The position numbers were made by a program, and so were the translations under genes. The notes beneath the pieces were generated by a model. That model saw nothing but the letters and a program-made list of their open reading frames with translations, was not told the origin of the DNA and ran no database searches. A stretch of DNA of 54,527 bases from an uncultured Bacilli bacterium (GTDB lineage Bacteria; Bacillota_I; Bacilli_A; RF39; UBA660). Shown piece after piece: positions 13,996 to 46,272 of this stretch. Position 1 is the stretch's first letter. The number at the start of each line of letters is the position of its first letter. Location of the stretch: NCBI GenBank assembly GCA_947623825.1, contig CANQHQ010000005.1, positions 1-54,527 of the forward strand. Reading direction: 5' to 3'.

Positions 13996-14023
13996 TTGAC
14001 GTGGGGGGGGGGTATGTTATTAT
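13996..14023 (+). promoter_or_regulatory. sigmaA promoter with a G10 tract in the spacer (candidate phase-variable)
   Basis: TTGACG-T-G10(14003-14012)-TATGT-TATTAT; spacer 16 nt. Confidence 0.7.
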
Positions 14024-14059
14024 AGTAATGTAGATATTATTGGAGAGGAGAGAAAATTT

Positions 14060-14998
14060 ATGAAAAAAGCAATAATGTTTATGATGGCATTATTCGTAGG
14101 TATGCTATGCGTAGTTCCTGTATATGCTGCTGAAGAACAATATGCCACGGTTAAAGACAACACTGCTACTGATAGTTTGATTGATGGTTTAAAACCTGAA
14201 GTTACAGTTAGCCCATCACATGAGATAGTTATTACTGTTTATGGAGGTACATACAAACTTCTTCCAGAAATCTCAGGAGTTGATCCTGCAAATCGTCCAG
14301 ACGGATATACTTGGGTTGGATTAGATTTTGTATTACCTGAAGGAACAACTGATGTTAAAATTGATACAACTAGTTATGATGATTCTGAATCAGGTGGTGA
14401 ATTTACTTTTACTGAGTGGTTTGGTTTCAACGATACTGACCTTTCAGAGGCAGCTAAAGAAAAGAAAAATTTAGAAAAGTCTTGGACATTAACTTGGAAG
14501 GATTCCGAAGAAGAAGAGCACACTCAAACTATTAGACTTATTGTTATACCTAGTAGTGTTGTTATAAAAGAACAAGACGGAGAAAACGAAGTATGGAATG
14601 AAGAAAAATATTTAGAAGAATCTAATCAAGAGAAGTTAGATTATGCTTACAGCTATACTTCTGAAGCAGCAGGATTTGAAAATCATGGTACATTGTATTA
14701 TGATGAAGGTACTACCAAAGAAGAGGTGGAGAATCAACTTCGTGAGTTAGTTAGTTCTGAATTTGAAAACCTTGTAATCGAAGGAATTTATAGTGATGAC
14801 GAAATGACTACTCCTTTTGACTTCAATACAGATTTAGGTGGAACGAAAATAGCTTATATTAAATTAGTTGATAAAGTAGTAGAAAATGAAGAAAATCCAT
14901 CTACGGGAGATAACGTATTAACTTACGCTATTATGGGGACTATTGCTCTAGTTGGTTCATTAGGAACTGCTCTTTACTTCAAAAAAGTAAATGAATAA
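14060..14998 (+). CDS. Acidic cell-wall-anchored protein (NPSTG sorting signal, probable class B sortase substrate)
   Basis: Signal peptide ending VYA-A; C-terminal ENPSTGD + hydrophobic helix + KK; RBS GAGGAG. Confidence 0.82.
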   Translation: MKKAIMFMMALFVGMLCVVPVYAAEEQYATVKDNTATDSLIDGLKPEVTVSPSHEIVITVYGGTYKLLPEISGVDPANRPDGYTWVGLDFVLPEGTTDVKIDTTSYDDSESGGEFTFTEWFGFNDTDLSEAAKEKKNLEKSWTLTWKDSEEEEHTQTIRLIVIPSSVVIKEQDGENEVWNEEKYLEESNQEKLDYAYSYTSEAAGFENHGTLYYDEGTTKEEVENQLRELVSSEFENLVIEGIYSDDEMTTPFDFNTDLGGTKIAYIKLVDKVVENEENPSTGDNVLTYAIMGTIALVGSLGTALYFKKVNE

Positions 14999-15006
14999 AA
15001 ATAACT

Positions 15007-15037
15007 AAAAGAGATGAATTTCAATTCACCTCTTTTT
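15007..15037 (+). terminator. Intrinsic terminator
   Basis: AAAAGAGATGAAT-ttca-ATTCACCTCTTTT hairpin. Confidence 0.6.
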
Positions 15038-15258
15038 GGTTGGGAAAAGTTAAAATTATAAGACCTTTTTAAGATCGATATCGATTTTATTACAGTGTTT
15101 TAGTAACTTCTTTGAAAGAAGTGTTACTATGATTATTGTTTTTCTTTGTATCATTTTTTCATATCACTCTCATAAAAAGTCTGTCGATAAAAAAAACTAT
15201 CCTTTTTTTGGCTTTTTTGATATACTGATATTAGTAGGATAAGAGAGGAGGAGATAGA

Positions 15259-16218
15259 ATGGTACAACGAGATAGTAGTATTCAAATTCTTCTTTCGATT
15301 TTAGGTGTGATTTCTTTAATTTTAGTTACTGTAGGAGTCAGTTTTGCTTTTTTTACTTATGAACAAGAAGTACAGATAGAAAATTATGGAAACAAAGGAA
15401 AAATTTCATTGATTTATGCGAAAAATATGTTTTCTGAACAAGGAATTCGTATCGATACGTTGGAGCCGGTCGATGATTTGTCTATCAAGACGTCGAATGA
15501 TTCTAAGTATGTTTTTGATTTTCGGATTGTAGGAACTTCTTCTGCGACGTTCGAAATTCCTTATGAAATTACGTTAAGAAAAAGTGAACTTTCTTTCTTG
15601 GATGAAAATTTTGTAAAAGTTTATTTGACAGAAATCGATGGAGAAGAAGAAGTAGATACGCCTTTTACGACGACGTTACAACAACCAAAAACATTTCAAG
15701 TATTGACGCAAACCGGTATGATTTCCGCCAATGAAGAAATTGAGAAAACGATTTATAAAGGGTTGATTCCTGCGAATCAAAAAAATTATGAAAAGAAATT
15801 TCGCTTGCGTCTTTGGGTTTCCTCTGATGCGATTCCTATGATGGAGAATCTTCTCCTTCAAAAAAAGGAAAATCAACCATTCTTTGATGTCAAACTGAAT
15901 GTGTATTCGGAAGCAACGACGGTGACGCAGGGAGAAACTGTCGAGGCGACCGCGATTACTTTAGATGCACCCGCACCGATGGTTGTGAATGGTACGCAGA
16001 CGATTCGAGCGACATTTACTCCGATTACGACTACCAATCAAACGTTGACGTGGACGAGTAGTCAACCAGAAGTTGTCTCTATCCTTCCTCAGGCAGATGG
16101 CACTGCTTTACTAACCGCCCATTCTTTGGGAACAGCCGTGATTCAAGCGACAAGTCAAAATGGAGTTTGTCAGAATATTTCGGTTACAGTGATTGATCCA
16201 AACCAACCGGTATCTTAG
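15259..16218 (+). CDS. Secreted/surface protein with a SipW-like signal segment and C-terminal bacterial Ig-like (Big_2) domain
   Basis: Hydrophobic N-terminus ending GVSFAFFTY; C-terminal ATFTPITTTNQTLTWTSSQPEVVSI...GTAVIQATS...ISVTV. Confidence 0.7.
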   Translation: MVQRDSSIQILLSILGVISLILVTVGVSFAFFTYEQEVQIENYGNKGKISLIYAKNMFSEQGIRIDTLEPVDDLSIKTSNDSKYVFDFRIVGTSSATFEIPYEITLRKSELSFLDENFVKVYLTEIDGEEEVDTPFTTTLQQPKTFQVLTQTGMISANEEIEKTIYKGLIPANQKNYEKKFRLRLWVSSDAIPMMENLLLQKKENQPFFDVKLNVYSEATTVTQGETVEATAITLDAPAPMVVNGTQTIRATFTPITTTNQTLTWTSSQPEVVSILPQADGTALLTAHSLGTAVIQATSQNGVCQNISVTVIDPNQPVS

Positions 16219-16222
16219 GAGC

Positions 16223-17350
16223 TTAGGCTCTTTTTTTTTGACTTTGATCGATATTCCAAATGATTCCCATCAAGAACATATAGGAAAGAAGAGAAGATCC
16301 ACCGTAACTGATGAACGGAAGCGTAATTCCTGTGATGGGAAGCATTCCTAGGGTCATTCCAATATTTTGAAATTGTTGATAGATGATCATCCCACTCGCA
16401 CCGATGACGAAAAGGGCATCTTCTGGTTTCTTGGCTTTTTTGGCAATTTCAAAAAGAGTGTAGTCAAAGAATAGAAGAAGCGCTAGAAAAAGACTACTTC
16501 CAATGAGTCCAAAGTTAGAAGCAAAAACAGAGAAAATAAAATCCGTTCCGGCTTCTGGAAAATAAAGAGGTGTCTCTTTCCAACCATGCCCGTAGAGTCC
16601 ACTAGAACCGATGGCAGTTAAAGAATTCTCCAGTTGCATTCCTGTTCCCTTTTTCCAATCGAGAAGTCGATCGACCCGATAAAATAAATCGGTTCCGAAC
16701 CAGTTGACCCATTGTTTTGGTTCATTAAAATACAAAAAGAGAAAGATAGAAGCGAAGAGAACGAGAAGCCCTCCACTTACAAAAAACCAACGTTTTCGAA
16801 GAGAAGAACAAAACAGAATGGTTCCACAAATAATAAAATATAAAAGAATGACGCCTGTATCCGGTTCTAGAAAAGTGAGAATACTAGGAAGTAAAAAGAG
16901 AAGAAAGACTTTTCCTATTAAGATTATTTCTTTTTGCCATCGTTTCTTCTTGGTCTTTTTTTTCATTTCTTGCGAGACCACGATACTTGTCGTTAAAATC
17001 AAAAAGACTTTCATAAACTCACTTGGTTGAAAAGAACCGAGACCAGGAATGACGAACCAACATTTACTACTGTTGATACTAGGAGCGAAAAATAAGAGTA
17101 AAAGTAAAAAAAGATTTCCTAAAAAATAAAAAACATAGTGATATTTTTTAATTGGTTCGTTTCCTATCTTCGCTAAAATGAAGATGAGAATTCCCCCAAC
17201 GAGATACCAGAGGAGTTGTTTTAGATAGAGTTCTCCTAATGAAGCCGAAAGATACTCTTGGGCACTTTGAATGGTAAGGATACTGATTACTAAAAAACAG
17301 AGTAGGCAAAAGACTAATTTTTTATTCCAGGTTTTCTTTGTTTTTGACAT
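16223..17350 (-). CDS. SEDS-family peptidoglycan polymerase (RodA/FtsW/SpoVE), RodA-like
   Basis: SFQPSEFMK, EPDTG, AIGSSGLYG, PEAGTDFIF, PITGITLPFISYGGSS. Confidence 0.9.
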   Translation of the reverse strand: MSKTKKTWNKKLVFCLLCFLVISILTIQSAQEYLSASLGELYLKQLLWYLVGGILIFILAKIGNEPIKKYHYVFYFLGNLFLLLLLFFAPSINSSKCWFVIPGLGSFQPSEFMKVFLILTTSIVVSQEMKKKTKKKRWQKEIILIGKVFLLFLLPSILTFLEPDTGVILLYFIICGTILFCSSLRKRWFFVSGGLLVLFASIFLFLYFNEPKQWVNWFGTDLFYRVDRLLDWKKGTGMQLENSLTAIGSSGLYGHGWKETPLYFPEAGTDFIFSVFASNFGLIGSSLFLALLLFFDYTLFEIAKKAKKPEDALFVIGASGMIIYQQFQNIGMTLGMLPITGITLPFISYGGSSLLSYMFLMGIIWNIDQSQKKRA

Positions 17351-17425
17351 AAAAATCCCTCTTTTTTAGTATTCTTTGTTTTAAAAAAAATATACCATTC
17401 ATACAGTATACTAAGGAGGAATTCT

Positions 17426-17740
17426 ATGAAGAAAGAATTGCCACATATTTATCAAAATACGATGGCGACCAAAGCGAATCGGAATAAAAACGTTTATCAT
17501 ATTCCACAGAAAGAAGAAAGGGAAACAGTCTCTTCTTTTCAAACCGTAGAAGAAAAATTGAAAAAATTATTTGGAAGTCGTCGTTATATTTTTAATATTG
17601 GAGTAGAAATTGTGACGGCGAAAAAAGTATATGATACGAAAATTGCGGGAAAAGTAAAAAACAGTATCGTGACTGTCGATGGCGATACGATTCCTATGAT
17701 TGAGATTCAAGATATCATTATAAAAGACCGTTTGTCTTAA
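17426..17740 (+). CDS. Small hypothetical protein, possibly sporulation-expressed
   Basis: Strong RBS AAGGAGG; upstream CATACAGT resembles a sigmaE -10. Confidence 0.7.
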   Translation: MKKELPHIYQNTMATKANRNKNVYHIPQKEERETVSSFQTVEEKLKKLFGSRRYIFNIGVEIVTAKKVYDTKIAGKVKNSIVTVDGDTIPMIEIQDIIIKDRLS

Positions 17741-17750
17741 ACGGCCTTTT

Positions 17751-18176
17751 TTATACACAATTGATGTAGGTATCTGCGAGGCATCGTAAAGCCCCTACGC
17801 AACTGAGATTGATGGTGAAGAATGCATCCGTTCCCACATAGGCACTTTCTGGAGTAGTCGTATCTGGATTTGGTGCCAAAACACGACATGTGCAACAGCA
17901 TCCTTCTACATTTTCGACACGTAGTACGCTACTTGTACCGGCGATTCCATTCAATGTGTAAGGTAGTGTCCATGCGAGTCCATCGCTACAACGATATAAT
18001 TCTACAGGACGCGTGTTGAAGCATATGGTTGTTGGAAGAGGTCCTAAAAAAGGACGATCGCATCCATCTTTTAAACAATCGAATTTATCACTGCGATTTT
18101 GAAGCGTTACGATGACTTTTAAGATACTGGCAATACAACAATCTTCGTTGGAATTTGGTCTTTCTTCTTGTGACAT
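17751..18176 (-). CDS. CotY/CotZ (ExsY)-family spore coat/crust protein
   Basis: Cys-rich; CCIASILKVI..LQ, NTRPVELY, LRVENVEGCCCTCRVL, FTINLSCVGALRCL; RBS AAGGAGG before ATG18176. Confidence 0.85.
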   Translation of the reverse strand: MSQEERPNSNEDCCIASILKVIVTLQNRSDKFDCLKDGCDRPFLGPLPTTICFNTRPVELYRCSDGLAWTLPYTLNGIAGTSSVLRVENVEGCCCTCRVLAPNPDTTTPESAYVGTDAFFTINLSCVGALRCLADTYINCV

Positions 18177-18254
18177 GGTCTTCCTCCTTTCTTCTCCTTT
18201 CGATAATCTAGACATAATTGTTGGTACGAATGAATCGAATTGGGTATTTCGTCA

Positions 18255-18293
18255 TTATCTACTATAAGATATTCTTTTTTTCTTCTTTTGGTG
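18255..18293 (-). promoter_or_regulatory. sigmaK-like promoter of the cotY/Z gene
   Basis: cACc-16 nt-AATATCTTATAGTAG; 19/21 identical to 21847-21867. Confidence 0.55.
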
Positions 18294-18360
18294 TATTATG
18301 ATTACCTAAAATCCCTTTTCATTTTGAAAGAAATATTGTATAATGAGTTTGGTGATAAAA

Positions 18361-18675
18361 ATGGATTATTTACAGTATATCATTATCGTTGTTGTTTTGG
18401 TGATTATGGCACTTGCCATTTTAAAATCTACCAGAAAAGATGCCCATCTAGAACTCAATAAATTGGTAGAGTATCTGGGAGGAAAGGAAAATATTGTTTC
18501 GACTGAAACGAATCTTTCTCGTTTTAAGGTTACTCTCAAAGATGTAGATATTGTCAATAAAGAGGCGATTCAGAAATTGGGTGCGAAGGGAATTGTAGAA
18601 ATTGATAATCAGTTAAAGATTATTTTAGGTCCAGAAAGTAAACAATTAAAAAAATATATCGACGATTTAAAATGA
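18361..18675 (+). CDS. Membrane-anchored PTS EIIB-like (glucose/sucrose family) protein lacking the phosphorylatable Cys
   Basis: N-terminal TM; LGGKENIVSTETNLSRFKVTLKD...LGAKG...LKIILG; canonical CxTRLR reads NLSRFK. Confidence 0.75.
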   Translation: MDYLQYIIIVVVLVIMALAILKSTRKDAHLELNKLVEYLGGKENIVSTETNLSRFKVTLKDVDIVNKEAIQKLGAKGIVEIDNQLKIILGPESKQLKKYIDDLK

Positions 18676-18700
18676 CAAAAAAGAAGAGATTTCTCTAAAA

Positions 18701-28710: not shown

Positions 28711-28739
28711 TTGACTTTTCAAGTGGGGGGGGGTATACT
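28711..28739 (+). promoter_or_regulatory. sigmaA promoter of the pilus operon with a G9 spacer tract (candidate phase-variable)
   Basis: TTGACT-TTTCAAGT-G9(28725-28733)-TATACT; spacer 17 nt. Confidence 0.8.
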
Positions 28740-28760
28740 GAAAATAGGCGGGTGATCACA

Positions 28761-30875
28761 GTGGCAAGGAAAAAGAAAAGATGGATTGTATGCATTTCTG
28801 TTTTCCTTTTTGCAATCATGGCTATCCTTCTTGCTAACTTAGGCTCTTCTCTTTCTGTAGATGAACTAGACGAAGGCGCTCGTGTGATGGAAGATAGCGA
28901 ACTCATTTATTATTTAAATGTTAGTTATGATGGTAAAGATAAAGGGGCAATAGTCTCGAGTGAGAATGCGACTGCGGATGTTCGAAGCGATTATATTTAT
29001 GTAGAAGATAAGATACCAGATGGACTTATATTTGAAGATTTTGTTAAAACGGATGATGGAACGATTGGGGCAGTACAAAGAAGTAATCCTGATAAAACTT
29101 GTAGCGGACATGTCGTCGATGGAACAACAGGCTTGCATTATGATGATAAAACCAATACGGTTTCTTTTAAAATTAAAAATTTACAAGCCGGATGCCAGAT
29201 TACTGTGGGAATTAAAACCAAAACACCAAAATTAAATGGAAAGCCACGATTGGATTTTTATAATACGGCTTTTGGACGAGAAAATGATTTTTCAATCGGT
29301 TCGAATACGGTACACGTCTTTTTAGGAAACGAAAATCAACAACTTTATAAAGTAAAGTATCAATATACAGGAACGGATATTCCAAAGAATGCACCAACTT
29401 TGCCAGCAGATAGTGAATATGCCGCAGGTGTCAGTGTCGGTGTGATTGCGGATGTCGATGTGGCGGGTTATACGTTTAGTGGTTGGCAAGCCACGACGGA
29501 AAGTGGTGTCACTATTACTGATGGAAAATTTACAATGCCTTCGAAAGATGTAACCATTGTAGGTAGTTTTACTAAAAATCAAACCCATTCGGTCACCTAT
29601 ATAATTGAAGGAAGTGACAAACCGAGTGGATATCAACCACCGAAACAGAAAAATTATGAGGTAGGAGAAGATGTCCTTCTTGATTCTTTGAAAAAAGGTG
29701 ATGAGATTGATGGATATCGTTTTAAAGGTTGGACGGTAAAGACTCCACAAGTTCAAGTGGAAACAGTCGATGAAGGACAAGCTTTCACGATGCCAGGACA
29801 GAATGTAGAAATTGTCGGTAGTTTTGAACTTATTCAATACAAGGTCACTTATCAATTCCAAGGTTCTGTGAAACCACCAGATGCTGACTCATTATTACCA
29901 GAAGAAAAATCTTATGTTCCAGGGGCGACTGTTACGACCGCAAAAGATCCAGTTTCTACAGGATACCGTTTCTTAGGCTGGTATAAGGCTTCTACCTTTA
30001 TTATGCCGAGTGAAGACGTCGTTATTTATGGAGAATGGATGAAAGAAGCAGGTACGTTCCAACCAACGATTACGAAGAAAATTGATGGCGACAACAAAAA
30101 ATATTATCATGATGGGGACGTTGTAACCTTTACGATTACTGTTACTAATCCTTCTAATTTGACTTTGACCAACGTCATGATTCAGGAACAGATGCCAGGA
30201 ACGAAGTTTATCAATGGTAATGGTTCTTACACTGTGTTAAATGATACGATGGTAGAAATTCCAACGATGGCTCCAAGTCAAGCCATTGATGTTAAGGCAC
30301 AATATACAGTTGGAAAGGAACCGGTTGCACACTTTACCAATCAGGTAGAGTTAACAGGAGCTTTGGCTTCAAATGATTATCATTTGGATACTTCGAAAAC
30401 GTATCAAGCAACGGTTGAATTTGATGTTTCGAATTTGAGTTTAGATGTGCACCCGAAAGGGGAAGAAATGGAAGATTTAAAGGGTGTTACCTTCGATTTA
30501 TGCGAGGATGCTACTTGCTCTAGTGTATTGCAAAACGGTTTAAGTTTTAAAGATTTAGAGCCGGGAAAGACGTATTATTTGAAACAAAAGAGAGCGGCAA
30601 CAGGACATACACTCGTAAAAGAATCTATTCAAGTTACAGTCGATGAAAATGGTCATTTTACAGTAGACGGCTATGATTCAAAACAAGATGGTGGTCATGC
30701 GGAATTTGATGTGATTAATCCAAAGATTAATATTTTACCTGAAACAGGTGGTATGGGATTAATTCCATTCCTTGTTGGAGGACTAGTTCTTATGATTGGA
30801 AGTGCGAGTGGATATGTTTATTTTACGAAGAAGAAAAATGGAGGGAAAAAGAATGGTAAAAAAACGAAAAAATAG
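28761..30875 (+). CDS. Pilus ancillary/tip adhesin with B-repeat-like and DUF11-like domains, LPETG anchor
   Basis: N-terminal hydrophobic segment; three Y.V.Y...P...GY.F.GW...F.MP..DV repeats; GDVVTFTITVTN; LPETGG + TM + basic tail. Start GTG28761 (or 28752). Confidence 0.82.
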   Translation: MARKKKRWIVCISVFLFAIMAILLANLGSSLSVDELDEGARVMEDSELIYYLNVSYDGKDKGAIVSSENATADVRSDYIYVEDKIPDGLIFEDFVKTDDGTIGAVQRSNPDKTCSGHVVDGTTGLHYDDKTNTVSFKIKNLQAGCQITVGIKTKTPKLNGKPRLDFYNTAFGRENDFSIGSNTVHVFLGNENQQLYKVKYQYTGTDIPKNAPTLPADSEYAAGVSVGVIADVDVAGYTFSGWQATTESGVTITDGKFTMPSKDVTIVGSFTKNQTHSVTYIIEGSDKPSGYQPPKQKNYEVGEDVLLDSLKKGDEIDGYRFKGWTVKTPQVQVETVDEGQAFTMPGQNVEIVGSFELIQYKVTYQFQGSVKPPDADSLLPEEKSYVPGATVTTAKDPVSTGYRFLGWYKASTFIMPSEDVVIYGEWMKEAGTFQPTITKKIDGDNKKYYHDGDVVTFTITVTNPSNLTLTNVMIQEQMPGTKFINGNGSYTVLNDTMVEIPTMAPSQAIDVKAQYTVGKEPVAHFTNQVELTGALASNDYHLDTSKTYQATVEFDVSNLSLDVHPKGEEMEDLKGVTFDLCEDATCSSVLQNGLSFKDLEPGKTYYLKQKRAATGHTLVKESIQVTVDENGHFTVDGYDSKQDGGHAEFDVINPKINILPETGGMGLIPFLVGGLVLMIGSASGYVYFTKKKNGGKKNGKKTKK

Positions 30876-31551
30876 TTTGATACTGGGACTATTTCTGCTT
30901 CTCTTATTGTTTCCCTCTGTTCCTGTCCGAGCGGCAGGAATTGATACCGATCAATTAGGTATCTTAGAAGTAAAATGTGTCTATGATAAACTGCCTTTGG
31001 TCGGGGTCAAGGTTTCTCTTTACAAAGTGGCGGTTGTCGATGCGAGAGGGTTTTATAATTTCATCGCAAGGTATTTCTCTTTTACAGAAGATTTAAATCA
31101 TCTTTCTTCTTCCCAATCCAGAGAATTAGCAAAAAAACTTTCAGATTATATAATTGAGAACGAAATCGAACCGGATATGCAGGGAGAAGCAGATCAGTAC
31201 GGAGATTACAAATTTGAAGATATAGAGACGGGATTGTATTTGATACAAGTCGATGAATATGAAAAAGAAAATCGTAGTTATTCTATGGCACCGATTTTGA
31301 TTTCTATGCCGATGGAGGATCCGAAAGGTGGATACGATTACGATGTGATTGTCGAATCAAAAATAGAGATGGTCGATCACAATCCGAGCCATCCTACTGA
31401 TGATAACACAACGGAATCACCAAGTACCTATGATGAGATTTATGGATACGTAGCAATTCTTGTTATCTCATCGTTGTTACTTGTTGGAGCCGGTTTGTTA
31501 TATATATTACTAAAAAAGAAAGGGAGTAATAAAAATGAAAAAAATAGTTAA
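30853..31551 (+). CDS. Minor (basal) pilin with an atypical SPSTYD sorting signal
   Basis: Signal peptide; GVKVSLYKVA, G.YKFEDIETGLYLI (CnaB-like); SPSTYD + TM + KKK. Confidence 0.75.
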   Translation: MVKKRKNSLILGLFLLLLLFPSVPVRAAGIDTDQLGILEVKCVYDKLPLVGVKVSLYKVAVVDARGFYNFIARYFSFTEDLNHLSSSQSRELAKKLSDYIIENEIEPDMQGEADQYGDYKFEDIETGLYLIQVDEYEKENRSYSMAPILISMPMEDPKGGYDYDVIVESKIEMVDHNPSHPTDDNTTESPSTYDEIYGYVAILVISSLLLVGAGLLYILLKKKGSNKNEKNS

Positions 31552-33145
31552 AAGAATGTTAGCTGTATTAATGATTGCTGTTACTTTTATGGGATTTACT
31601 GTTAATGCTGTCGAGATTACAACTAATGGTCAAGTTGGTACTGTAGATACTTCTAGTAAACTTGTTACGGCCCAAGCGACATTGACAGTTTCAAATGTTC
31701 AAAGTAGCGAGAAATTTAGTGCCTATAAAATATTAGATGTATTTTATAATGAAGGGAACAATACCATCACATATGAATTTACTAAGGATTTTGACAGTTT
31801 TAGAACGAGTAGCCAAACGTATTCAAGTTTGTCAGTAGACCAGTATTTGGCATTGTCTGGTACTTCTATTGAAACTCCAAACTCTTCAAAACGGGAAGGG
31901 GAACTTGATAAACTTGCAAGTGAATATGCAGCATATGTAAAAAAGAGTGGTAGCTCTGTTCAATCAGGAGTAGCTCTAAATACATCTGGAGATAGTGCTA
32001 CGGCTACTGTTGCTGCTGGTGCTTATCTTATTCTTCCGACGGCGACTACTCGTGTGTTCGGTGTTATGGTAGGAAATGTAACTCCTGCTCGTGGAGATGA
32101 TGGAGAGTGGAAAATTGAAGGAACATCGATTGTGGCAAAAGCTACTGCCCCTACTGTAAAGAAGACAGTGGGAGATGATGTGTCTTCGACAAAAAGTTAT
32201 AGTTATGGTGAGACCATTACATATAACATTGAAGTGACTGTTCCTGCTTATCCGACAGACGCATTAAACAAAAAATTTGTATTAACTGATACTATGAGTG
32301 AGTATCTAGTTTTTTCAGGATTTGATAATATGGTAATGTTGGACGGAGGAACTTCATTATCTATCACTCACTCAGACGAGAAAAATGCAACTGTTTCTAC
32401 TTCTGATAAGAAGGAAGTAGCGAAAATAGTTATAGATGATGAAAAACATACGATGACGATTGATTTTACTATTGATAACATTACATCTAATAAAATAAGT
32501 ATTTCGTATGATACTACGTTAAGTAATCAAGCCCCTTTAGGAACAAAAACACCAATTACTAACAGTGTTGTTTTAAAGTATTCGAATGATCCATATATTC
32601 AGCCTGGAGAAGGACCTGATCCTACTCCAGATCCAGGTACAACGGAAACAAAGCCAGACGAAGATGAGGGTGGAAAAACGACAGTTACCACTTATGGAAT
32701 TAAGTTAATTAAGTACGATTCGAAAGATACTAGTACTGATAAAAAAACAAACGTATTGAAAGGTGCTGGATTCAAACTTTGTTCTACTCAAGATTGTGAA
32801 TCTCCATTGGCAACAAACACTACCGATGATCAGGGTGTGATTGAGTTCAAAGGTATTAAGGCTGGAACGTATTATTTAATAGAAACAAAAGCTCCAACAG
32901 GATATTCGCTTATAAAAAATCCAATTGTAGTCCAGGTTAATGAAAATACCCAGGAAAGTACCGCAAAATATGATTCTGAAAGCGGTATGGTAGAAGTTTT
33001 GGTATCTAACACATTGGTTGGTTCTCTTCCAGTTACTGGTGGTGCTGGTACTATACTATTTACAGTTTCAGGTGCAATTATTATGATTGGTGCTATCTGG
33101 TTTATCTTCATTTATAAAAAGAAAAATAAAGAAGCGCAATCATAA
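31535..33145 (+). CDS. Major (backbone) pilin, SpaA/EbpC-like
   Basis: Signal peptide; IVAKATAPTVKK pilin-motif region; E-box YYLIETKAPTGY; LPVTGG + TM + basic tail. Confidence 0.9.
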   Translation: MKKIVKRMLAVLMIAVTFMGFTVNAVEITTNGQVGTVDTSSKLVTAQATLTVSNVQSSEKFSAYKILDVFYNEGNNTITYEFTKDFDSFRTSSQTYSSLSVDQYLALSGTSIETPNSSKREGELDKLASEYAAYVKKSGSSVQSGVALNTSGDSATATVAAGAYLILPTATTRVFGVMVGNVTPARGDDGEWKIEGTSIVAKATAPTVKKTVGDDVSSTKSYSYGETITYNIEVTVPAYPTDALNKKFVLTDTMSEYLVFSGFDNMVMLDGGTSLSITHSDEKNATVSTSDKKEVAKIVIDDEKHTMTIDFTIDNITSNKISISYDTTLSNQAPLGTKTPITNSVVLKYSNDPYIQPGEGPDPTPDPGTTETKPDEDEGGKTTVTTYGIKLIKYDSKDTSTDKKTNVLKGAGFKLCSTQDCESPLATNTTDDQGVIEFKGIKAGTYYLIETKAPTGYSLIKNPIVVQVNENTQESTAKYDSESGMVEVLVSNTLVGSLPVTGGAGTILFTVSGAIIMIGAIWFIFIYKKKNKEAQS

Positions 33146-33150: not shown

Positions 33151-34047
33151 ATGCTTAAAAAGTTAAAAAGAAATTTACCTCTTGTACTTTTTATTGTATT
33201 GTTTGTGACAGGATTCCTTGTGATGGCATATCCTGTCATCAGCAATGCAGTAAGCGAAGTTCGATATGATGAAACCATTAAAGACTATGAGAATACCGTT
33301 AAGAAAAAGAGTAATGAAGAATATGAATACATGTTTCATGAAGCAGAAGAGTATAACAAAAATTTAACGCATTCTACTGTAGCTGATGTGTTTTCGGATC
33401 CAAACTTTGTGAATTCAGAGGAATATTTGGATATATTGAAACTCGATGATCATGGTACAATTGGGTATCTTTCTATACCTAAGATTGATGTGAAAATTCC
33501 AATCTATCATGGTACAAGTGCTGAAGTTCTTCAAAAGGGTGTTGGTCATCTAGAGGGAAGTTCTTTTCCAGTAGGGGGAGAGACGACACATGCGATTCTT
33601 TCTGCTCATAGGGGATTGCCTTCCGCTCGACTTTTCACTGATTTAGATAAAATGGAAGAAGGAGACTTTTTCTACATCTATGTATTAGATCGTGTTTTTA
33701 CTTATCAAGTGGATCAAATTATGGTGATTGAACCTGATAATACAGAACCTTTAGGATTAAAAGAAGGACAAGATTACGTTACCTTGATAACTTGTACTCC
33801 TTATGGAGTGAATACCCATCGATTATTGGTTCGTGGAACTCGTGTCGTTCCTGAAGAGGAAGAACATAGTCCGGTGGTGGTAGAGGAAACTCCAAAGGTG
33901 ATGAGTACTTTCTACATCTTATTGTATGTGGGAATTGGAATTGGAATTCTTGTCTTAGTGATTACAATCCTAATTGTTTTGAAAATGAAGAAGAACAAAG
34001 AAAAGCATTTGAAAACGGATCATGTAGAGCATATAGAAAAGATTTAA
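33151..34047 (+). CDS. srtC: Class C (pilin) sortase
   Basis: Lid-like DVF, GHLEGSSFPVGG, SAHRG, TLITCTPYGVNTHRLLVRG; TM at both ends. Confidence 0.93.
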   Translation: MLKKLKRNLPLVLFIVLFVTGFLVMAYPVISNAVSEVRYDETIKDYENTVKKKSNEEYEYMFHEAEEYNKNLTHSTVADVFSDPNFVNSEEYLDILKLDDHGTIGYLSIPKIDVKIPIYHGTSAEVLQKGVGHLEGSSFPVGGETTHAILSAHRGLPSARLFTDLDKMEEGDFFYIYVLDRVFTYQVDQIMVIEPDNTEPLGLKEGQDYVTLITCTPYGVNTHRLLVRGTRVVPEEEEHSPVVVEETPKVMSTFYILLYVGIGIGILVLVITILIVLKMKKNKEKHLKTDHVEHIEKI

Positions 34048-34086
34048 GAGTTCTTAAATCTTTTTCTTTCTATGGAGGGATGCGAT

Positions 34087-34863
34087 TTGAAAAAGGGGTT
34101 ATTGCTTCTTTTAGTACTATTCGGTTTGCTTGGGGTAGGATATTCGAGTTATCACATTGTCGGTTGGATGCAGGACAATGAGAAAACCCATGAGCAAATT
34201 GAAAAAATACAAGAGATAGTGGAAGTCAAAGAAAAAGAGGATACTGCTTCGACGGTTGTGGTTAGTGAAAGTCCTTATACGGAAGAAAAATTCATTGATG
34301 TCGATTTTGATTCTTTGTATTCTATTAATTCTGAAGTGGCAGGGTGGATTCAAGTGAAAGGAACGAATATCAATTATCCTTTTGCTCAACACTCTGACAA
34401 TCGTTACTATTTGAAACATTCTTTTTATCCTGGTTCGAATAGTGCGGGATGGGTGTTTCTAGATTATCGAAATTCTTTGACAGAATTAAGTCGAAATACG
34501 ATTATTTATGCCCATGGAAGAGTCGATGGAACGATGTTTGGAACGTTAAAGGATACGATGAGTGAATCTTGGCTTTCTCATCCAGAGAATTACGTCATTA
34601 AAGTGTCTACGCCTTTTCAAAATTATCTCTTTGAAGTATTTAGTATTTATCATATCCCTACAACCAGTGATTACTTATACATTGATTTTAGTAGTAATCA
34701 AAGTTATTTAAACTTTTTACAAAAAATTCAAGGACGTAGCGTTCATTCTTTTGATACGGAAGTAGGTGTGACAGATAAGATTCTTACTTTATCTACTTGT
34801 TATAACGATCAGGAGAAAATGGTGTTACATGCCAAATTAATTAAAACGGAAAAGAGATATTAG
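34087..34863 (+). CDS. srtB: Class B sortase
   Basis: GWIQVKGTNINYP, DNRYYLKH, NTIIYAH, GTMFGTL, LTLSTC; start TTG after GGAGG. Confidence 0.9.
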   Translation: MKKGLLLLLVLFGLLGVGYSSYHIVGWMQDNEKTHEQIEKIQEIVEVKEKEDTASTVVVSESPYTEEKFIDVDFDSLYSINSEVAGWIQVKGTNINYPFAQHSDNRYYLKHSFYPGSNSAGWVFLDYRNSLTELSRNTIIYAHGRVDGTMFGTLKDTMSESWLSHPENYVIKVSTPFQNYLFEVFSIYHIPTTSDYLYIDFSSNQSYLNFLQKIQGRSVHSFDTEVGVTDKILTLSTCYNDQEKMVLHAKLIKTEKRY

Positions 34864-36482: not shown

Positions 36483-36851
36483 ATGACATTGCATTGGTCG
36501 GTGTTACAACAATTGTTAATTTTAGCGATGATTTGTAGTACTTTATCCGTGGCATTTATTCAAAAAACGAAGAAACTTTGTCCGAATCACATCTTTGTTC
36601 TTTTTTATAGTTTCTTGGTGAATTTAGGAATTGGGGTTCTTTTTACGCAAACTTTTACAGATTTGTCGCTTTATCATTCTCTATGGGTCGGTTTTTTTAG
36701 TTATTTGGGGGCAGATACCATTTATCAAAGTCTAGAAGGAAAACTCGCTTCGTATTCTTCTTTGGTTGGTTCTTCTTCTAGTTCGAAAGAAGAGACAGGT
36801 GTTTCTTCGGAAGTAGACGAGGATATTTTGGGGGAGATTCCTCGTGATTAA
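36483..36851 (+). CDS. Holin-like small membrane protein
   Basis: Three hydrophobic segments and an acidic tail; overlaps the start of the downstream lysin-like gene. Confidence 0.55.
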   Translation: MTLHWSVLQQLLILAMICSTLSVAFIQKTKKLCPNHIFVLFYSFLVNLGIGVLFTQTFTDLSLYHSLWVGFFSYLGADTIYQSLEGKLASYSSLVGSSSSSKEETGVSSEVDEDILGEIPRD

Positions 36852-39495: not shown

Positions 39496-39496
39496 T

Positions 39497-41871: not shown

Positions 41872-41892
41872 ACCATCCCTCTTTTTCTCTTT

Positions 41893-41921
41893 TAGTATGA
41901 GTGATTTTTTGAAAAATATGT
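41893..41921 (-). promoter_or_regulatory. sigmaG-like promoter of the ger operon
   Basis: aCATA-17 nt-CATACTA on the minus strand, matching the B. subtilis sigmaG consensus GHATR-17/18-CATWMTA except the first base. Confidence 0.6.
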
Positions 41922-41995
41922 TTTTCTTTTGTTCTTTTCTTTTTCCCTTTTTCTTTTTTATCATTTTCATGTATAATAAGTATGAGTGTGATAAT

Positions 41996-43822
41996 ATGAT
42001 AGAAATTCGTAAGGATGATGAATACGAAGTTGTTATCAAGAAACAAGATCATTTTGGAGATGGGATTGTCCGTATCAAAGATATGTTGGTTTTTGTGAAG
42101 GATGCTCTTCCGGGAGATCGATTGAAGATTCGTATTTCTGATGTAAAAAAAACGTATGCGGTCGCCCAAATCTTAGAAGTGATTCATTCTTCGGATGAAC
42201 GGGTTGATCCTTACTGTGCGTACTTTGATACCTGTGGTGGATGTCAAATTATGGATCAATCTTATGCCTCTCAGTTGGTTTTTAAAGAAAAGAAAGTTCG
42301 GGAAATTTTTAAGAAATTCGCGGAAATTGATGATTTGGATATTGAATCCATTAGTCATGGTCCAGAAATTCATTATCGAAATAAGATTTTGTTTCATGGG
42401 ATGAATCATATTTTGGGTTTTTATCGAGAAAAGAGTCGGGCTTTGATTCCTGTCAAACTGTGTTTATTGGCAGAAGAGGATTTGAACTTGGTTTATGGAA
42501 AAATTATCGATTATTTGGATGAACACCCGAAAACGATGATTACTGGGTTACTTCTTCGAAAAACTTCTTTGGATGAAATCATGTTGGTGGTAGAAGGGGA
42601 ACTGGAGGATGAAAAAAGTTTTCTTGATGCCATGGATGCCTTATCTCTTACGTCGGTTTATGTCAATAATCAATTGGTTTTAGGAAAACCAGCCATTACA
42701 GAAAAGATTTTCGAAATGCAATTCCAGATTTATCCTGAGGCTTTTTTTCAGGTAAATTATGTGATGATGAAAGTCTTGTATCAGATTGTTTTAAATTATT
42801 ATAAATATAAAGATTACAATAAGGTACTAGATTTATATTGTGGAACCGGAACGATTGGTTTGTTGTTATCTACCTATGTTTCTCATGTAGTAGGAGTAGA
42901 ATTTTCGAAGGATGCGATTCGTTCTGCGAAGAAAAATAAAGAAATCAATCACGTCGAGAACATCGAGTTTATCGAAGGAAAAGTGGAAGATCATATTCAA
43001 CAGTTTCGGGATATCGATTCGATTGTCGTCGATCCTCCAAGAAGTGGATTAGATAGTGTTACGTTACAGACGATTTTACGTTTATTACCGGAAAGTGTCG
43101 TCTACATCTCTTGTGATCCTGTGACGTTAGCGAGAGATTTGAAATTGTTGTTGGAAGAATATACGTTGACGCGAACTAATTTGATTGATATGTTTCCTAA
43201 TACGTATCATGTAGAGACTGTCGTCATCTTAGAGAAAACGCAGAAACGAACATTTCATCAATATGGAATTCTCGTAAATAAGAGTCATCCTTATCAAATG
43301 GAAGATTTTAACGGAATGGTCTTGGTGAAGACGCAAACGGTTGATGGAGGAGAGACGTTTGTAGATGAAATTGCCTTTGAACATTACTTGTTGTGGAAGA
43401 GTCAATTGGCGGAAGAACAGATTGTGATTGGAATTGTCAATGGCTATCGTACATACGAAGAAGAGGAACAATTGTATCAGAAGGCGTTGGAAGTGTTACC
43501 GAAGGTGAAAGCGGAGGAAGAATATGCCCCTCCTGGTTTTTCTGAGTTTCATACCGGATTGCTTCTCGAATTGGCAGTTTTAAAGACACCGTTCAAAGAC
43601 GATGATGAAGCGTATACGAAAACGTTTGAAAGAATTCGGGAATTGGCACCAGAGTATGGATTTGTCTTGCGATATCCGCGAGGGAAAGAAAAGAGTACGG
43701 GATTTCGTTATCAACCACATCAGTTCCGTTATGTCGGTAGTGGATTATCCCATGTTTTAGAAAAAAATGGAATCGTATTAGAAGAATATTATAATGAAAA
43801 GGAGAAAGAAGAAAATGGATAA
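41996..43822 (+). CDS. rlmD: RlmD/RlmCD (TrmA-family) RNA m5U methyltransferase fused to a degenerate VanY/M15B D,D-carboxypeptidase domain
   Basis: TRAM domain, CAYFDTCGGC, AFFQVN, LDLYCGTG, VDPPRSG, YISCDP, HVE; then LVNK, GYRTYEE, APPGFSE, YGFVLRYP, FRYVG. Confidence 0.88.
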   Translation: MIEIRKDDEYEVVIKKQDHFGDGIVRIKDMLVFVKDALPGDRLKIRISDVKKTYAVAQILEVIHSSDERVDPYCAYFDTCGGCQIMDQSYASQLVFKEKKVREIFKKFAEIDDLDIESISHGPEIHYRNKILFHGMNHILGFYREKSRALIPVKLCLLAEEDLNLVYGKIIDYLDEHPKTMITGLLLRKTSLDEIMLVVEGELEDEKSFLDAMDALSLTSVYVNNQLVLGKPAITEKIFEMQFQIYPEAFFQVNYVMMKVLYQIVLNYYKYKDYNKVLDLYCGTGTIGLLLSTYVSHVVGVEFSKDAIRSAKKNKEINHVENIEFIEGKVEDHIQQFRDIDSIVVDPPRSGLDSVTLQTILRLLPESVVYISCDPVTLARDLKLLLEEYTLTRTNLIDMFPNTYHVETVVILEKTQKRTFHQYGILVNKSHPYQMEDFNGMVLVKTQTVDGGETFVDEIAFEHYLLWKSQLAEEQIVIGIVNGYRTYEEEEQLYQKALEVLPKVKAEEEYAPPGFSEFHTGLLLELAVLKTPFKDDDEAYTKTFERIRELAPEYGFVLRYPRGKEKSTGFRYQPHQFRYVGSGLSHVLEKNGIVLEEYYNEKEKEENG

Positions 43823-44411
43823 GAAAACGATTTTATTGATTGTAGGGGTTGTCGTCATTCTTGGCGTCGCTCTATTCTTTGGAACGAAAAAGGAGGAGAA
43901 GAAAGAAATGCTTACCGGAAAACATCATGTAGAAATTGTCGTACGTGATTATGGAACCATCGCTGTAGAACTCGATGCGGATAGTGCGCCTATCACAGTT
44001 ACCAATTTTTTGGATTTGGTAGATGCCAAATTCTATGATGGATTGACTTTCCATCGCATTCATCCTGAATTTGTGATTCAGGGAGGAGATCCGGATCATA
44101 ATGGAACGGGAGGAAGTAGTCAAAAAATCAAAGGGGAGTTCTCACAAAATGGAGTCGATAACTCTATCTCTCATGTACGAGGAACCATTTCGATGGCACG
44201 AGGAAATGATTTCAACAGTGCCACGAGTCAATTTTTCATCGTTTTGGAAGACGCACCGTCTTTAGATGGATTGTATGCGGCTTTTGGACACGTAACAGAA
44301 GGAATGGATGTCATCGATGCCATCGTTTCTCAGACAGTAATTGAAGACGATGGAGAGACCGTTCTTTATGAAAATCAACCCGTTATCGAGAAAATTGTAA
44401 AAATCGATTAA
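43815..44411 (+). CDS. Membrane-anchored cyclophilin-type peptidyl-prolyl isomerase
   Basis: APITVTNF, FYDGLTFHRI, IQGGDP, GTISMAR, SQFFI, LDGLYAAFG. Confidence 0.93.
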   Translation: MDKKTILLIVGVVVILGVALFFGTKKEEKKEMLTGKHHVEIVVRDYGTIAVELDADSAPITVTNFLDLVDAKFYDGLTFHRIHPEFVIQGGDPDHNGTGGSSQKIKGEFSQNGVDNSISHVRGTISMARGNDFNSATSQFFIVLEDAPSLDGLYAAFGHVTEGMDVIDAIVSQTVIEDDGETVLYENQPVIEKIVKID

Positions 44412-44478
44412 AATTCAAAAAAGAGTGATATAATATAGAAAGTTTTTTCTATATTATTTTCATGAAAGGAGAGATTTT

Positions 44479-45348
44479 ATGGAAACGATCGTCGTGGAAC
44501 AAGAAGATACCCTTTTACCTTATCTTTTGACCCATACGAATTATTCGAGAAAGAAATTAAAATCTTTACTCAAATATCATGCCATCACTGTTTCTGGTGT
44601 TCGATTGGCTCGTTTTGATACACCTTTGAAGAAAAAACAGGTGATTTCTATTTCGTCGGAAAAGAAAGCAACGAAAATAGAGAATGTCGATATTTTGTAT
44701 GAAGACGAAAATTATCTTGTCGTGAATAAACCGGCTGGTATGCTTACGGTGTCGACCGAAAAAGAAAAAAATCGTACTTTGTATCATTTGGTTCGTGGGT
44801 ATGTGAAAGAGAAAAATCCACATTCTAAGATTTTTATTGTGCATCGTTTGGATCGAGAGACGAGTGGAATTGTTCTTTTTGCGAAAGAGGAATCTTTAAA
44901 AAGAAAATTACAAGAGCATTGGGAAGAAGTGGCACTTTGTCGTCGATATACAGCCGTTGTTTCTGGTCTGATGGAAAAGAAAGAGGATTGTTTGGTTTCT
45001 TACTTGAAAGAGAATCGCGAAAATCATGTTTTTGTATCAAAAGATGGAACCGGAAAGAAGGCAGTGACCCATTATCGAGTTCTTCGAGAAATGGAGAATA
45101 GTCTTTTAGAAATTGAAATTGAAACAGGAAGAAAGAATCAGATTCGTGTGCAGTTGGCGGAAATTCAACATCCGATTTTGGGAGATAAAAAATACGGAAA
45201 TACGAAAGGGAAACGACTTTATCTTCATGCCAATTACTTGTCAATTCGTCATCCTTTGACGGGAAAACCGATGGTGTTTGAATGTGCCGTTCCTAGAGAT
45301 TTTATGAGACAATTATCAACTTCACAAAAACCAGAACAAGGTGTATAA
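44479..45348 (+). CDS. RluA-family pseudouridine synthase
   Basis: VNKPAG, VHRLDRETSG, TGRKNQIRV, HPILGDKKYG, LYLHA. Confidence 0.93.
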   Translation: METIVVEQEDTLLPYLLTHTNYSRKKLKSLLKYHAITVSGVRLARFDTPLKKKQVISISSEKKATKIENVDILYEDENYLVVNKPAGMLTVSTEKEKNRTLYHLVRGYVKEKNPHSKIFIVHRLDRETSGIVLFAKEESLKRKLQEHWEEVALCRRYTAVVSGLMEKKEDCLVSYLKENRENHVFVSKDGTGKKAVTHYRVLREMENSLLEIEIETGRKNQIRVQLAEIQHPILGDKKYGNTKGKRLYLHANYLSIRHPLTGKPMVFECAVPRDFMRQLSTSQKPEQGV

Positions 45349-45371
45349 TGAAATAGGAGGATGATAGATGT

Positions 45372-45932
45372 ATGAAATATTTAAAAGATGAGATTCAAAA
45401 GATTTTTGTTACTTCTCTTGTGACGTCCGTTATTATGATTTTTTTAGGAATTTTCCTATTATGCAAACCTGATTTTATTTTGACTACTTTGTCGACTGTG
45501 ATTGGAATTATTGTATTGGTTCCTGCCGTTATTTCTTTGATTGATTATTTTAAGACAAAGTATATGGCGAATTTAATTGTCGGTGTAGCTGCCGGTGTGA
45601 TGGGAATCATCTTTATTTTTAACCCTACGTTTATTTCTAGTATTTTACCATTTGTTTTGGGCGTTTATTTCCTTATCGATGGATTGAGTCGTCTTCAATA
45701 TGCATTCGAAATGAAGAAGAATCAAGTTCCAGGATGTGTTTCTGCCTTTGTTTCTTCGATTCTAATTCTCGTTTTGGGAGTTTTAATGATTCTAAATCCA
45801 TTTGAAGGAGCTTTAGCTATTACCCAAGTCATTGGTATCTTCTTAATTCTTCATTCTGCCCTTGACTTGTATAATGCAATTTCTACTAAGATGAAAGTAA
45901 CAAAATTTGTAAAGAAAATGTTGAAGGATTAG
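45372..45932 (+). CDS. HdeD/DUF308-family membrane protein
   Basis: Repeated helical hairpins with G..L...P pattern; six TM segments. Confidence 0.75.
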   Translation: MKYLKDEIQKIFVTSLVTSVIMIFLGIFLLCKPDFILTTLSTVIGIIVLVPAVISLIDYFKTKYMANLIVGVAAGVMGIIFIFNPTFISSILPFVLGVYFLIDGLSRLQYAFEMKKNQVPGCVSAFVSSILILVLGVLMILNPFEGALAITQVIGIFLILHSALDLYNAISTKMKVTKFVKKMLKD

Positions 45933-45941
45933 GAATCGGTT

Positions 45942-46226
45942 ATGGCAAAAAAAATTACAAATGAACAAAAATATCGTTTTCTTTGTTGGCGTTTATTCTG
46001 TCATTACATGATTATTGTGATGGGAATTTTAACGATTGCCCTTTCTCTTGCGTCTTTATTTTTAAAAATATCACCTATATATGCCGTTGTATCTTTTGTT
46101 TTAGAAGTGATTTTTTCTAAATTAAAACTCTATTTTAAAGAGAAAGAAGAGGCGGAAGAAGAACCAGAACAAGAAAAGAAAAAAAGCAAAAGAAAATCCA
46201 AAAAGAAAGAGGATAGACAGGGATAG
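45942..46226 (+). CDS. Small membrane hypothetical protein
   Basis: Two TM segments and a charged tail. Confidence 0.65.
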   Translation: MAKKITNEQKYRFLCWRLFCHYMIIVMGILTIALSLASLFLKISPIYAVVSFVLEVIFSKLKLYFKEKEEAEEEPEQEKKKSKRKSKKKEDRQG

Positions 46227-46242
46227 AAACCTGTTTTTTTCT

Positions 46243-46272
46243 TTGACTTTTCGATATGGGGGGGGGTATACT
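46243..46272 (+). promoter_or_regulatory. sigmaA promoter of the giant adhesin with a G9 spacer tract (candidate phase-variable)
   Basis: TTGACT-TTTCGATAT-G9(46258-46266)-TATACT; spacer 18 nt. Confidence 0.8.

Follow-up and report, generated by a model that had tools for sequence, protein, structure and literature searches.

The control of surface protein genes by poly-G tracts in promoter spacers is already well known from pathogens, and we describe here a probable further case in an uncultured gut bacterium. For porA of Neisseria meningitidis and tp0126 of Treponema pallidum, the mechanism has been established experimentally, with an optimum spacing of 17 nt (PMC7864442). In that account, porA has its poly-G tract in the sigma-70-type spacer of a surface protein gene, where tract length sets the spacing and hence the level of transcription; the tp0126 tract also lies between the −35 and −10 boxes, many poly-G tracts of the same small genome precede paralogous surface-protein genes (tp0126, tprE/G/J and tprL), and lengths of 7–11 G coexist within isolates (PMC7864442). 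The present host belongs to another phylum than T. pallidum and carries other surface proteins, and the variation and reporter effect measured in T. pallidum (PMC7864442) are ones that we infer here. Unlike the host of porA, it is an uncultured, Gram-positive-type gut bacterium, and it has 15 such promoters in 1.48 Mb, arranged in reusable cassette families. In Mycoplasma hyorhinis, each member of the vlp surface lipoprotein family has a poly-A tract in its promoter spacer. The likeness to the present case lies in giving every gene of a family its own spacer homopolymer, and with it the means for combinatorial, independent switching; the tracts here are poly-G rather than poly-A, the products are sortase substrates rather than lipoproteins, and Mycoplasma is wall-less. 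Outside pathogens, promoter-spacer poly-G switching seems little described, and a limited literature search found no report of poly-G tracts in the promoters of uncultured gut Bacilli or Erysipelotrichaceae.

The window, by which we mean the whole 54,527-nt stretch of DNA analysed, contains only three G or C runs of at least 8: G10 at 14003–14012, G9 at 28725–28733 and G9 at 46258–46266, lengths that, as consensus values from a short-read metagenome assembly, may be in error by one. The initial annotation had singled these out as the only long G runs, and both the coordinates and a G8 search agree: the 7 overlapping G8 matches on the two strands all fall within the three tracts, and the window has no poly-C run of at least 8. 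Across 100 dinucleotide shuffles of the window the mean was 0.30 G8 matches, and no shuffle reached 7. A promoter scan puts each tract wholly within the spacer between a −35 and a −10 box and returns the spacers of 16, 17 and 18 nt given in that annotation. The frame it had read at sites 2 and 3, TTGACTTTTC-N3/4-T-G9-TATACT, is present in both sequences, and the genes downstream are the surface genes it had named: an NPSTG-anchored protein at site 1, a sortase-pilus operon at site 2 and a 2064-aa adhesin at site 3.

Site 1 consists of a promoter, TTGACG-16-TATTAT with a TG before the −10 box, and a surface protein gene:

13996–14001, forward strand: −35 box TTGACG of promoter 1 (promoter scan)
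14003–14012, forward strand: G10 tract, fully within the promoter 1 spacer (sequence, run count)
14018–14023, forward strand: −10 box TATTAT, with TG two bases upstream and a spacer of 16 (promoter scan)
14021–14026, forward strand: alternative −10 box TATAGT, with a spacer of 19 and a score equal to that of TATTAT
14060–14998, forward strand: surface protein of 312 aa, with a signal peptide and, at the C-terminus, an NPSTG sorting signal

The C-terminus of the 312-aa protein runs from NPSTGDN through a hydrophobic stretch to KKVNE, which constitutes the sorting signal, and no Pfam or NCBIfam family was found for the protein. Four paralogues lie on another contig (C17), each with its own G9 or G10 promoter. 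In this promoter family two −10 boxes fit equally well, with a spacer of 16 or 19, and the TGn-extended −10 boxes may lessen the need for a −35 box and weaken the effect of spacing.

At site 2, promoter TTGACT-17-TATACT heads the pilus operon:

28711–28716, forward strand: −35 box TTGACT of promoter 2 (promoter scan)
28725–28733, forward strand: G9 tract adjoining the −10 box, spacer 17
28734–28739, forward strand: −10 box TATACT of promoter 2, kept in three orthologous pilus operons that have no G tract
28752–30875, forward strand: protein resembling a pilus tip or adhesin, LPETG-anchored, with InlB B-repeat, DUF11 and SpaA domains; the true start is likely a few codons inward
30796–31551, forward strand: 251-aa minor pilin-like protein, with a weak SpaH/EbpB match under the cut-off
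31535–33145, forward strand: major pilin of the SpaH/EbpB family with an LPXTG anchor (109.8 bits, cut-off 95)
33151–34047, forward strand: class C (pilus-assembly) sortase (285.9 bits, cut-off 160)
34072–34863, forward strand: class B sortase (172.3 bits, cut-off 153.75)

Orthologous operons with identical gene order and tip proteins 51–53% identical occur in three other genomes (G043, G008 and G002). Because all three retain the TATACT box and have no G or C run of 6 or more at the pilus promoter, the tract at site 2 is a lineage-specific gain.

Site 3 closely follows the end of another gene, and its promoter reads TTGACT-18-TATACT:

46215–46236, forward strand: intrinsic-terminator-like hairpin and T run, closing the upstream gene just 5′ of promoter 3
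46243–46248, forward strand: −35 box TTGACT of promoter 3 (promoter scan)
46258–46266, forward strand: G9 tract adjoining the −10 box, spacer 18
46267–46272, forward strand: −10 box TATACT of promoter 3 (promoter scan)
46273–46392, forward strand: leader of about 120 nt, partly common to paralogous adhesin genes on contigs C2, C3, C35 and C49
46393–52587, forward strand: adhesin of 2064 aa, with a signal anchor at the N-terminus, a VWA domain, 6 DUF285 stretches and, at the C-terminus, CUB domains

The leaders match no known RNA family (the window yields two tRNAs only), and their folds are weak, with z-scores of −0.1 to −2.4. DNA inversion was considered as a separate reading of the three sites and rejected: sites 1 and 3 have 0 inverted pairs, and site 2 has no more than a terminator hairpin and one 15-nt pair of low complexity.

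We consider it very probable that the three tracts are simple-sequence contingency switches, that is, classical slipped-strand phase variation of the porA or tp0126 type. Each G9–G10 run would form part of the −35/−10 spacer of a sigma-A-type promoter; replication slippage would gain or lose a G and shift the spacer by one base, and the changed spacer would alter how well RNA polymerase contacts both boxes. The predicted outcome is that expression of each surface locus rises, falls or stops in a heritable and reversible way, whatever the state of the other loci. We infer that slippage is frequent enough to be of use and that expression depends on spacer length; the surface structures would then switch stochastically and independently. 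Several lines of evidence bear on this reading.

First, the tracts of the window belong to a genome-wide set. The 1.48-Mb genome has 20 G or C runs of at least 8, of which 15 lie in promoter spacers and 5 inside glycan-synthesis genes; from the way shorter runs fall off in number, well under one would be expected. Run lengths are bimodal (8 G6, 2 G7 and 10 G8–11; 11 C6, 3 C7 and 10 C8–11), and the sense strand carries G in 20 of 20 tracts. Placement is non-random, a check named in the initial annotation, with 15 of the 20 tracts in the 10.5% of the genome outside open reading frames (ORFs) of at least 100 aa. All 15 intergenic tracts are fully inside the 15–20-nt spacer of a sigma-70-like promoter (at least 10 of 12 positions matching). 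That annotation had also proposed a test for enrichment at surface genes, and here 20 of 20 tracts go with surface or glycan genes. Downstream of the promoter tracts, 11 of the 13 readable genes (two of the 15 promoters run off contigs) encode an N-terminus that a crude rule classes as signal- or anchor-like; the rule picks out 290 of 922 ORFs of at least 200 aa. The remaining two genes encode a GT99 glycosyltransferase and a cytidylyltransferase. The loci behind the promoter tracts comprise adhesins, the pilus operon, sortase-anchored proteins, a prepilin-type protein and two surface-glycan genes.

Second, four of the five coding tracts are out of frame by one G. The epimerase gene encodes 33 aa at G10 and 312 aa at G9, the acyltransferase 247 or 348 aa by frame, and two GT6 copies 163 or 257 aa each; the fifth, a G8 tract in a GT99 gene, is in frame and gives 479 aa. 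The predicted set would contain 5 frame-shift switches in glycan-synthesis genes beside the 15 promoter switches.

Third, what mainly differs between close paralogous promoters is tract length (G8–G11), a difference observed directly between paralogues within one genome. Site 1 and the promoter at C17:27823 share 81 of 85 flank bases and have G10 and G9; the C35 and C49 promoters share 45 of 45 downstream bases and have G11 and G8; and a pair on C14 shares 19 of 20 upstream bases and has G9 and G8. The idea of a reusable cassette is borne out by six copies of TTGACTTTTC..Gn..TATACT at two non-homologous kinds of locus.

These observations also bear on a reading in which the G run is a static promoter element, a rigid, GC-rich spacer with G at −14 whose length changes only over evolutionary time, giving no useful heterogeneity within a population. 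The genome has genes for MutS and MutL, as would suit such an element, so no mismatch-repair defect is raising slippage; an extended −10 box is partly imitated by G at −13 to −15; and the only runs that match this DNA, four from one sample and none of RNA, revealed no length variation as Logan contigs at a depth of about 3–5, with no indels among the matches listed and none of the contigs listed bridging a tract with 31 letters on each side. We nevertheless judge a static element unlikely, given tract lengths that are unequal between near-identical paralogues, four of five coding tracts frame-shifted exactly at the tract, and spacers of 15 to 20 with no fixed 17. Moreover, to our knowledge homopolymers of 8 or more have been hypermutable in every case measured.

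The range of spacers also touches on a second alternative, modelled on Bordetella fim-type promoters, in which the tract lies between an activator site and the −10 box. A tract that served as a spacing device for a regulator, in the style of Bordetella fim or Neisseria opc, would set apart or overlap a transcription factor's site; its length would tune activation and not the −35/−10 geometry, and it would still be phase-variable by way of that factor. Such a device could account for distances from TTGAC to the best −10 box that are often far from 17 (15, 19 and 20, in the type II promoters of relatives and the site 1 family). The constant presence of G on the sense strand (20 of 20 tracts; the poly-C version in 0 of 29 genomes) was counted on the same side, and pure spacing needs no polarity. 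Set against this, 15 of 15 promoters have the tract enclosed by a good −35 box and a good −10 box that are 15–20 nt apart, and no conserved extra motif is evident upstream across promoter families, which makes regulator spacing quite improbable in our view.

Slipped-strand switching at the promoter spacer remains the preferred reading, and its design extends well beyond this genome. Of 29 genomes of the genus, 16 contain the pattern TTGAC-N1-14-G8+-TA, with 69 matches (some nested), and neither the reversed-pattern control nor the poly-C version matches in any of the 29. At the level of the class, 42 of 401 genomes contain it, the control giving 2 matches, and the same design is found in many phyla, including, by record titles, isolate and complete genomes. 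Among relatives, 21 of 22 ORFs downstream of tract promoters have signal- or anchor-like N-termini. Their commonest spacer is 19 (7 of 16 type I loci), and either most of these copies are in a low state or the optimum is other than 17. The initial annotation had placed the cassette in this lineage, which holds for the exact cassette, species-specific and absent from 24 other genomes of the same genus, but is too narrow for the design, which is common both in the genus and in the class and extends far beyond them. An exact-cassette search of metagenomes returned 6 loci, all from other organisms, and no second strain of the species. Similarly, a search of a protein collection found no variant forms of the tract-bearing epimerase and GT99 from other samples: the only entries at 100% identity repeat the truncated or in-frame form of this genome, and the next relative is 71% identical.

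Sequencing or assembly artefacts, such as poly-G from two-colour chemistry, are extremely improbable: two cassettes (C35 and C49) and many tracts of relatives do lie close to contig ends, but the three tracts of the window are internal with unique sequence on either side, the position of the tracts relative to the −35 and −10 boxes is constant, assemblies of many projects share the design, isolate and complete genomes included, and the reversed-pattern and poly-C controls are empty in the genus.

In Campylobacter, most tracts are coding, whereas promoter tracts here outnumber coding tracts 15 to 5. The five coding tracts, in glycosyltransferase, epimerase and acyltransferase genes, resemble the intragenic poly-G contingency loci described for surface-glycan genes of Campylobacter, Neisseria and Haemophilus (PMC6321876). 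The proposed system also resembles the invertons of gut Bacteroides in its combinatorial, heritable on/off control of many surface structures (PMC13742949); the mechanism is another one, and the proposed slippage needs no recombinase.

A broader picture can be offered tentatively. The tracts may constitute a strand-polar phasome of at least 20 poly-G switches, and a portable module some 45 bp long, made up of the −35 box, a constant part of the spacer, the G tract, the −10 box and the opening bases of the leader, may have been copied between non-homologous surface loci and have replaced an ancestral static A/T spacer at the pilus operon. Among gut Firmicutes and further uncultured lineages, spacer poly-G switching might then be a strategy of the same generality as the use of invertons by Bacteroides; as a whole, this picture is possible rather than probable.

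In annotation and assembly, glycan genes that look "frame-shifted" and contigs that break at cassettes are to be expected and should not be taken for errors. The design is widespread, both within the genus and class and across many phyla, and commensals may therefore merit the systematic study of repeat-based phase variation that invertons have already received. If switching occurs as predicted, 15 independent promoter switches and 5 coding switches could give a 1.5-Mb commensal thousands of surface-state combinations. The switched surface would consist of adhesins, pili, wall-anchored proteins and glycans, with consequences for how members of gut communities colonise, escape phages and evade immunity.

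The tracts lie exactly where the initial annotation had placed them when it proposed poly-G phase variation of surface genes, and a consensus promoter scan, which called one promoter-like site at each place, recovered the −35 to −10 spacers of 16, 17 and 18 nt that it had assigned:

14003–14012, G10: site 1, TTGACG-16-TATTAT with TG ahead of the −10 box
28725–28733, G9: site 2, TTGACT-17-TATACT
46258–46266, G9: site 3, TTGACT-18-TATACT

A G8 search of both window strands gave seven overlapping matches, every one within these three tracts; 100 dinucleotide-preserving shuffles of the window gave a mean of 0.30 matches and none reached seven. Runs of at least 8 C's are absent from the window. At site 1, an alternative candidate −10 box (TATAGT, spacer 19) scores equally with TATTAT at 16. 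A terminator-like hairpin (46215–46236) stands 5′ of the site 3 promoter, and no inverton-type inverted repeats were found flanking the promoters.

Site 2 heads a sortase-pilus operon of five recognisable genes, and the genes behind the three promoters are as follows:

Site 1 gene, 14060–14998: 312 aa, cleavable-looking signal peptide, C-terminal sorting signal (...ENPSTGDN, hydrophobic stretch, KKVNE); no Pfam or NCBIfam family matched
Pilus operon gene 1: 707-aa tip-like protein with InlB B-repeat, DUF11 and SpaA domains and LPETG
Pilus operon gene 2: 251-aa minor pilin-like protein
Pilus operon gene 3: SpaH/EbpB-family major pilin (109.8 bits, cut-off 95)
Pilus operon gene 4: class C sortase (285.9 bits, cut-off 160)
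Pilus operon gene 5, 34072–34863: class B sortase (172.3 bits, cut-off 153.75)
Site 3 gene, after a leader of ~120 nt: 2064 aa, signal anchor, VWA domain, six DUF285 stretches and CUB domains

The leaders of this and two other VWA/DUF285 adhesins (window 46273–46392; 23358–23477 on contig C2 and 22934–23033 on contig C3 of the same genome), ~100–126 nt long, have in common a GGAAC...GUUCC stem and, after it, a U run. This arrangement could be a leader attenuator; folding gives z-scores of only −0.6 to −2.4, and the leaders have no Rfam match. Elsewhere in the window, a 2635-aa ORF (128–8035) without a poly-G promoter has only weak STAND/AAA NTPase matches, at around residues 1848–2109, and may encode a large cytoplasmic NTPase of defence or signalling type.

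The window makes up contig C5 of an assembly of 1,476,410 bases in 61 contigs, with 34% G+C. Across this whole assembly, G/C run lengths are bimodal: G6 to G11 occur 8, 2, 2, 4, 3 and 1 times and C6 to C11 occur 11, 3, 3, 2, 4 and 1 times, so that 20 runs of at least 8 are observed where well under one is expected from the decay of shorter runs. Fifteen of the 20 are intergenic, although DNA outside ORFs of at least 100 aa makes up only 10.5% of the genome, and all 15 lie wholly within the spacer of a promoter that agrees with the consensus at 10 or more of its 12 positions.

Intergenic poly-G promoters of the genome, by family
Family A: TTGACTTTTC..Gn-TATACT; sites 2 and 3, contigs C2, C3, C35 and C49; G8–G11; spacers 17, 17, 18, 18, 19, 20
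Family B: TTGAC(G/A)..Gn..TGnTATTAT; site 1, four on contig C17, one on C4; spacers 15–20
Family C: TTGCCA-Gn-TATAAT; two on contig C14; spacers 17, 18
Single promoter: TTGTCA-G11-TATAAT; contig C1; spacer 19

Two family A promoters reach a contig end before a gene, leaving 13 readable downstream genes. Outside the window these encode two more VWA/DUF285 adhesins (980 and 1275 aa), four further (N/V)PSTG-anchored proteins, a Flg_new/Big_2 protein with a 1180-aa protein behind it, a 607-aa product whose N-terminus is of prepilin type, and two enzymes, a GT99 glycosyltransferase and a cytidylyltransferase. A crude hydrophobicity rule classes the N-terminus as signal- or anchor-like in 11 of the 13, compared with 290 of 922 ORFs of at least 200 aa (binomial p 1e-4, overstated because paralogues are non-independent). 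The sense strand carries the G run in all 20 tracts. This polarity goes beyond what pure spacing explains, and may come from a G at −14 that makes an extended-10-like contact, or from replication-strand bias.

Tract length appears to be the fast-changing part of these promoters, on evidence from paralogues rather than cells. The flanks of site 1 (G10) and its paralogue at C17:27823 (G9) are identical at 81 of 85 bases, the C35 (G11) and C49 (G8) promoters at 45 of 45 downstream bases, and the C14 pair (G9 and G8) at 19 of 20 upstream bases. Only four public runs, all from one sample labelled rabbit gut metagenome, contain the window; their contigs, at a depth of ~3–5, list no indels, and none of the listed pieces bridges a tract. 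The protein collection held no other-sample variants of the tract-bearing genes, and a metagenome scan found the exact cassette in other organisms only. In all four runs, a contig at depth ~50 joins window positions 36783 and 39485, omitting 2701 bases, with only 25 letters on its shorter side; it probably stems from a different organism or from a repeat. Contig ends often fall within ~50–450 bases of a cassette (C35:16144, C49:9498 and many tracts in relatives), as expected where the promoter, the leader and the starts of paralogous genes form repeats; tract heterogeneity may also contribute.

The remaining five tracts lie inside glycan-synthesis genes, where their length sets the reading frame:

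NAD-dependent epimerase: G10 observed, 33 aa; at G9, 312 aa
Acyltransferase_3: G10 observed, 247 aa; at G9, 348 aa
GT6, copy 1 of a tandem duplicate: G8 observed, 163 aa; at G9, 257 aa
GT6, copy 2: G8 observed, 163 aa; at G9, 257 aa
GT99: G8 observed, 479 aa, in frame; at G9, truncated

Full-length epimerase relatives measure 305–315 aa, which agrees with the epimerase here being cut short.

At the pilus operon, the putative switch is a lineage-specific gain. Major pilin orthologues occur in 3 of 28 other genomes of the genus (46–48% identity), and all three operons conserve the order tip, minor pilin, major pilin, with tip proteins 51–53% identical. G/C runs of at least 6 are absent from the ~6.4 kb covered in each, including ~3.3 kb 5′ of the tip gene. 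Their promoters instead read gggTTTG, an A/T-rich spacer whose total length is constant, and TATACTtaatata; this retention makes the pilus −10 box ancestral. The static spacers (loci L175, L176 and L177) contain T and A homopolymers (T8A5, T5cA6, T9A3) of constant summed length, and their differences look like substitution, not slippage. By this comparison, the TTGACTTTTCAAGT-G9 part is a replacement specific to the species studied here. The same TTGACTTTTCAAGT-G9 cassette serves the non-homologous VWA/DUF285 adhesins, which supports the earlier suggestion of a reusable cassette.

The exact family A cassette was found in none of 24 other same-genus genomes and none of 16 more distant ones. The broader pattern TTGAC-N1-14-G8+-TA gave 69 matches (a few nested) in 16 of 29 genus genomes, against none for the reversed pattern, and occurred in 42 of 401 genomes sampled from the class, against 2 control matches. 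Its poly-C version occurs in none of the 29 genus genomes, 24 of which carry G runs of at least 9. The 28 loci fetched from relatives fall into two types. In type I (16 loci), TTGACAAAA-N-Gn adjoins a TAnnnT box, with spacers of 17 (3 loci), 18 (4), 19 (7) and 20 (2); in type II (12 loci), TTGAC(A/T)T-G10 precedes TAGTTATGATACAAT; here the G tract adjoins the −35 box, with a pair of overlapping −10 candidates downstream. Six loci meet a contig end before an ORF; of the 22 readable downstream ORFs, 21 have a signal- or anchor-like N-terminus. Six type II loci (L031, L032, L034, L045, L046 and L048, from relatives G021, G001 and G010) carry C-rich runs, such as ccccc-aa-ccccc, just 5′ of the −35 box; their complementarity to the G tract makes it conceivable that a hairpin or cruciform forms around the −35 box, which would lie in the loop.

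With one genome per species, TTGACAAAA-N3-10-G8-TA matched at least 120 stretches. Among the matches listed are Lachnospiraceae, Erysipelotrichaceae, 'Tenericutes/Mollicutes/Bacilli' MAGs, Christensenellaceae, Treponema, gut Alphaproteobacteria MAGs and others, so this lineage is not alone in having the design. These cross-taxon matches, with isolate and complete genomes among those listed, rule out assembly artefact as the source of the tracts.

Established models for this design are Neisseria meningitidis porA and Treponema pallidum tp0126, in which, according to PMC7864442, poly-G lies between the −35 and −10 boxes, transcription is best at a 17-nt spacer and lengths of 7–11 G coexist within T. 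pallidum isolates; a review (PMC13742949) describes opc as working by the same principle. Applied by analogy, these models would put site 2 (spacer 17) fully on, site 3 (18) at a reduced level, and site 1 (16, extended −10 box) either on or reduced. Points that may weigh against this mechanism are the presence of MutS and MutL, the ambiguous −10 box of family B and the fact that 19 is the commonest spacer in relatives; promoters with extended −10 boxes may also depend less on exact spacing.

The poly-G promoter system of this genome is well supported as real. The mechanism itself is long established; what is new as an example is the host, a small, low-GC, uncultured bacterium that has sortases, together with the scale of the system. 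A limited literature search found no papers on poly-G promoter tracts in gut Bacilli or Erysipelotrichaceae. What is added is a genome-wide catalogue, a strand rule and a documented gain at a conserved operon. Class B sortases recognise NPxTG-type signals, and the one in the pilus operon might anchor the NPSTG/VPSTG proteins of site 1 and contig C17. If it does, the two sets of switches would be coupled.
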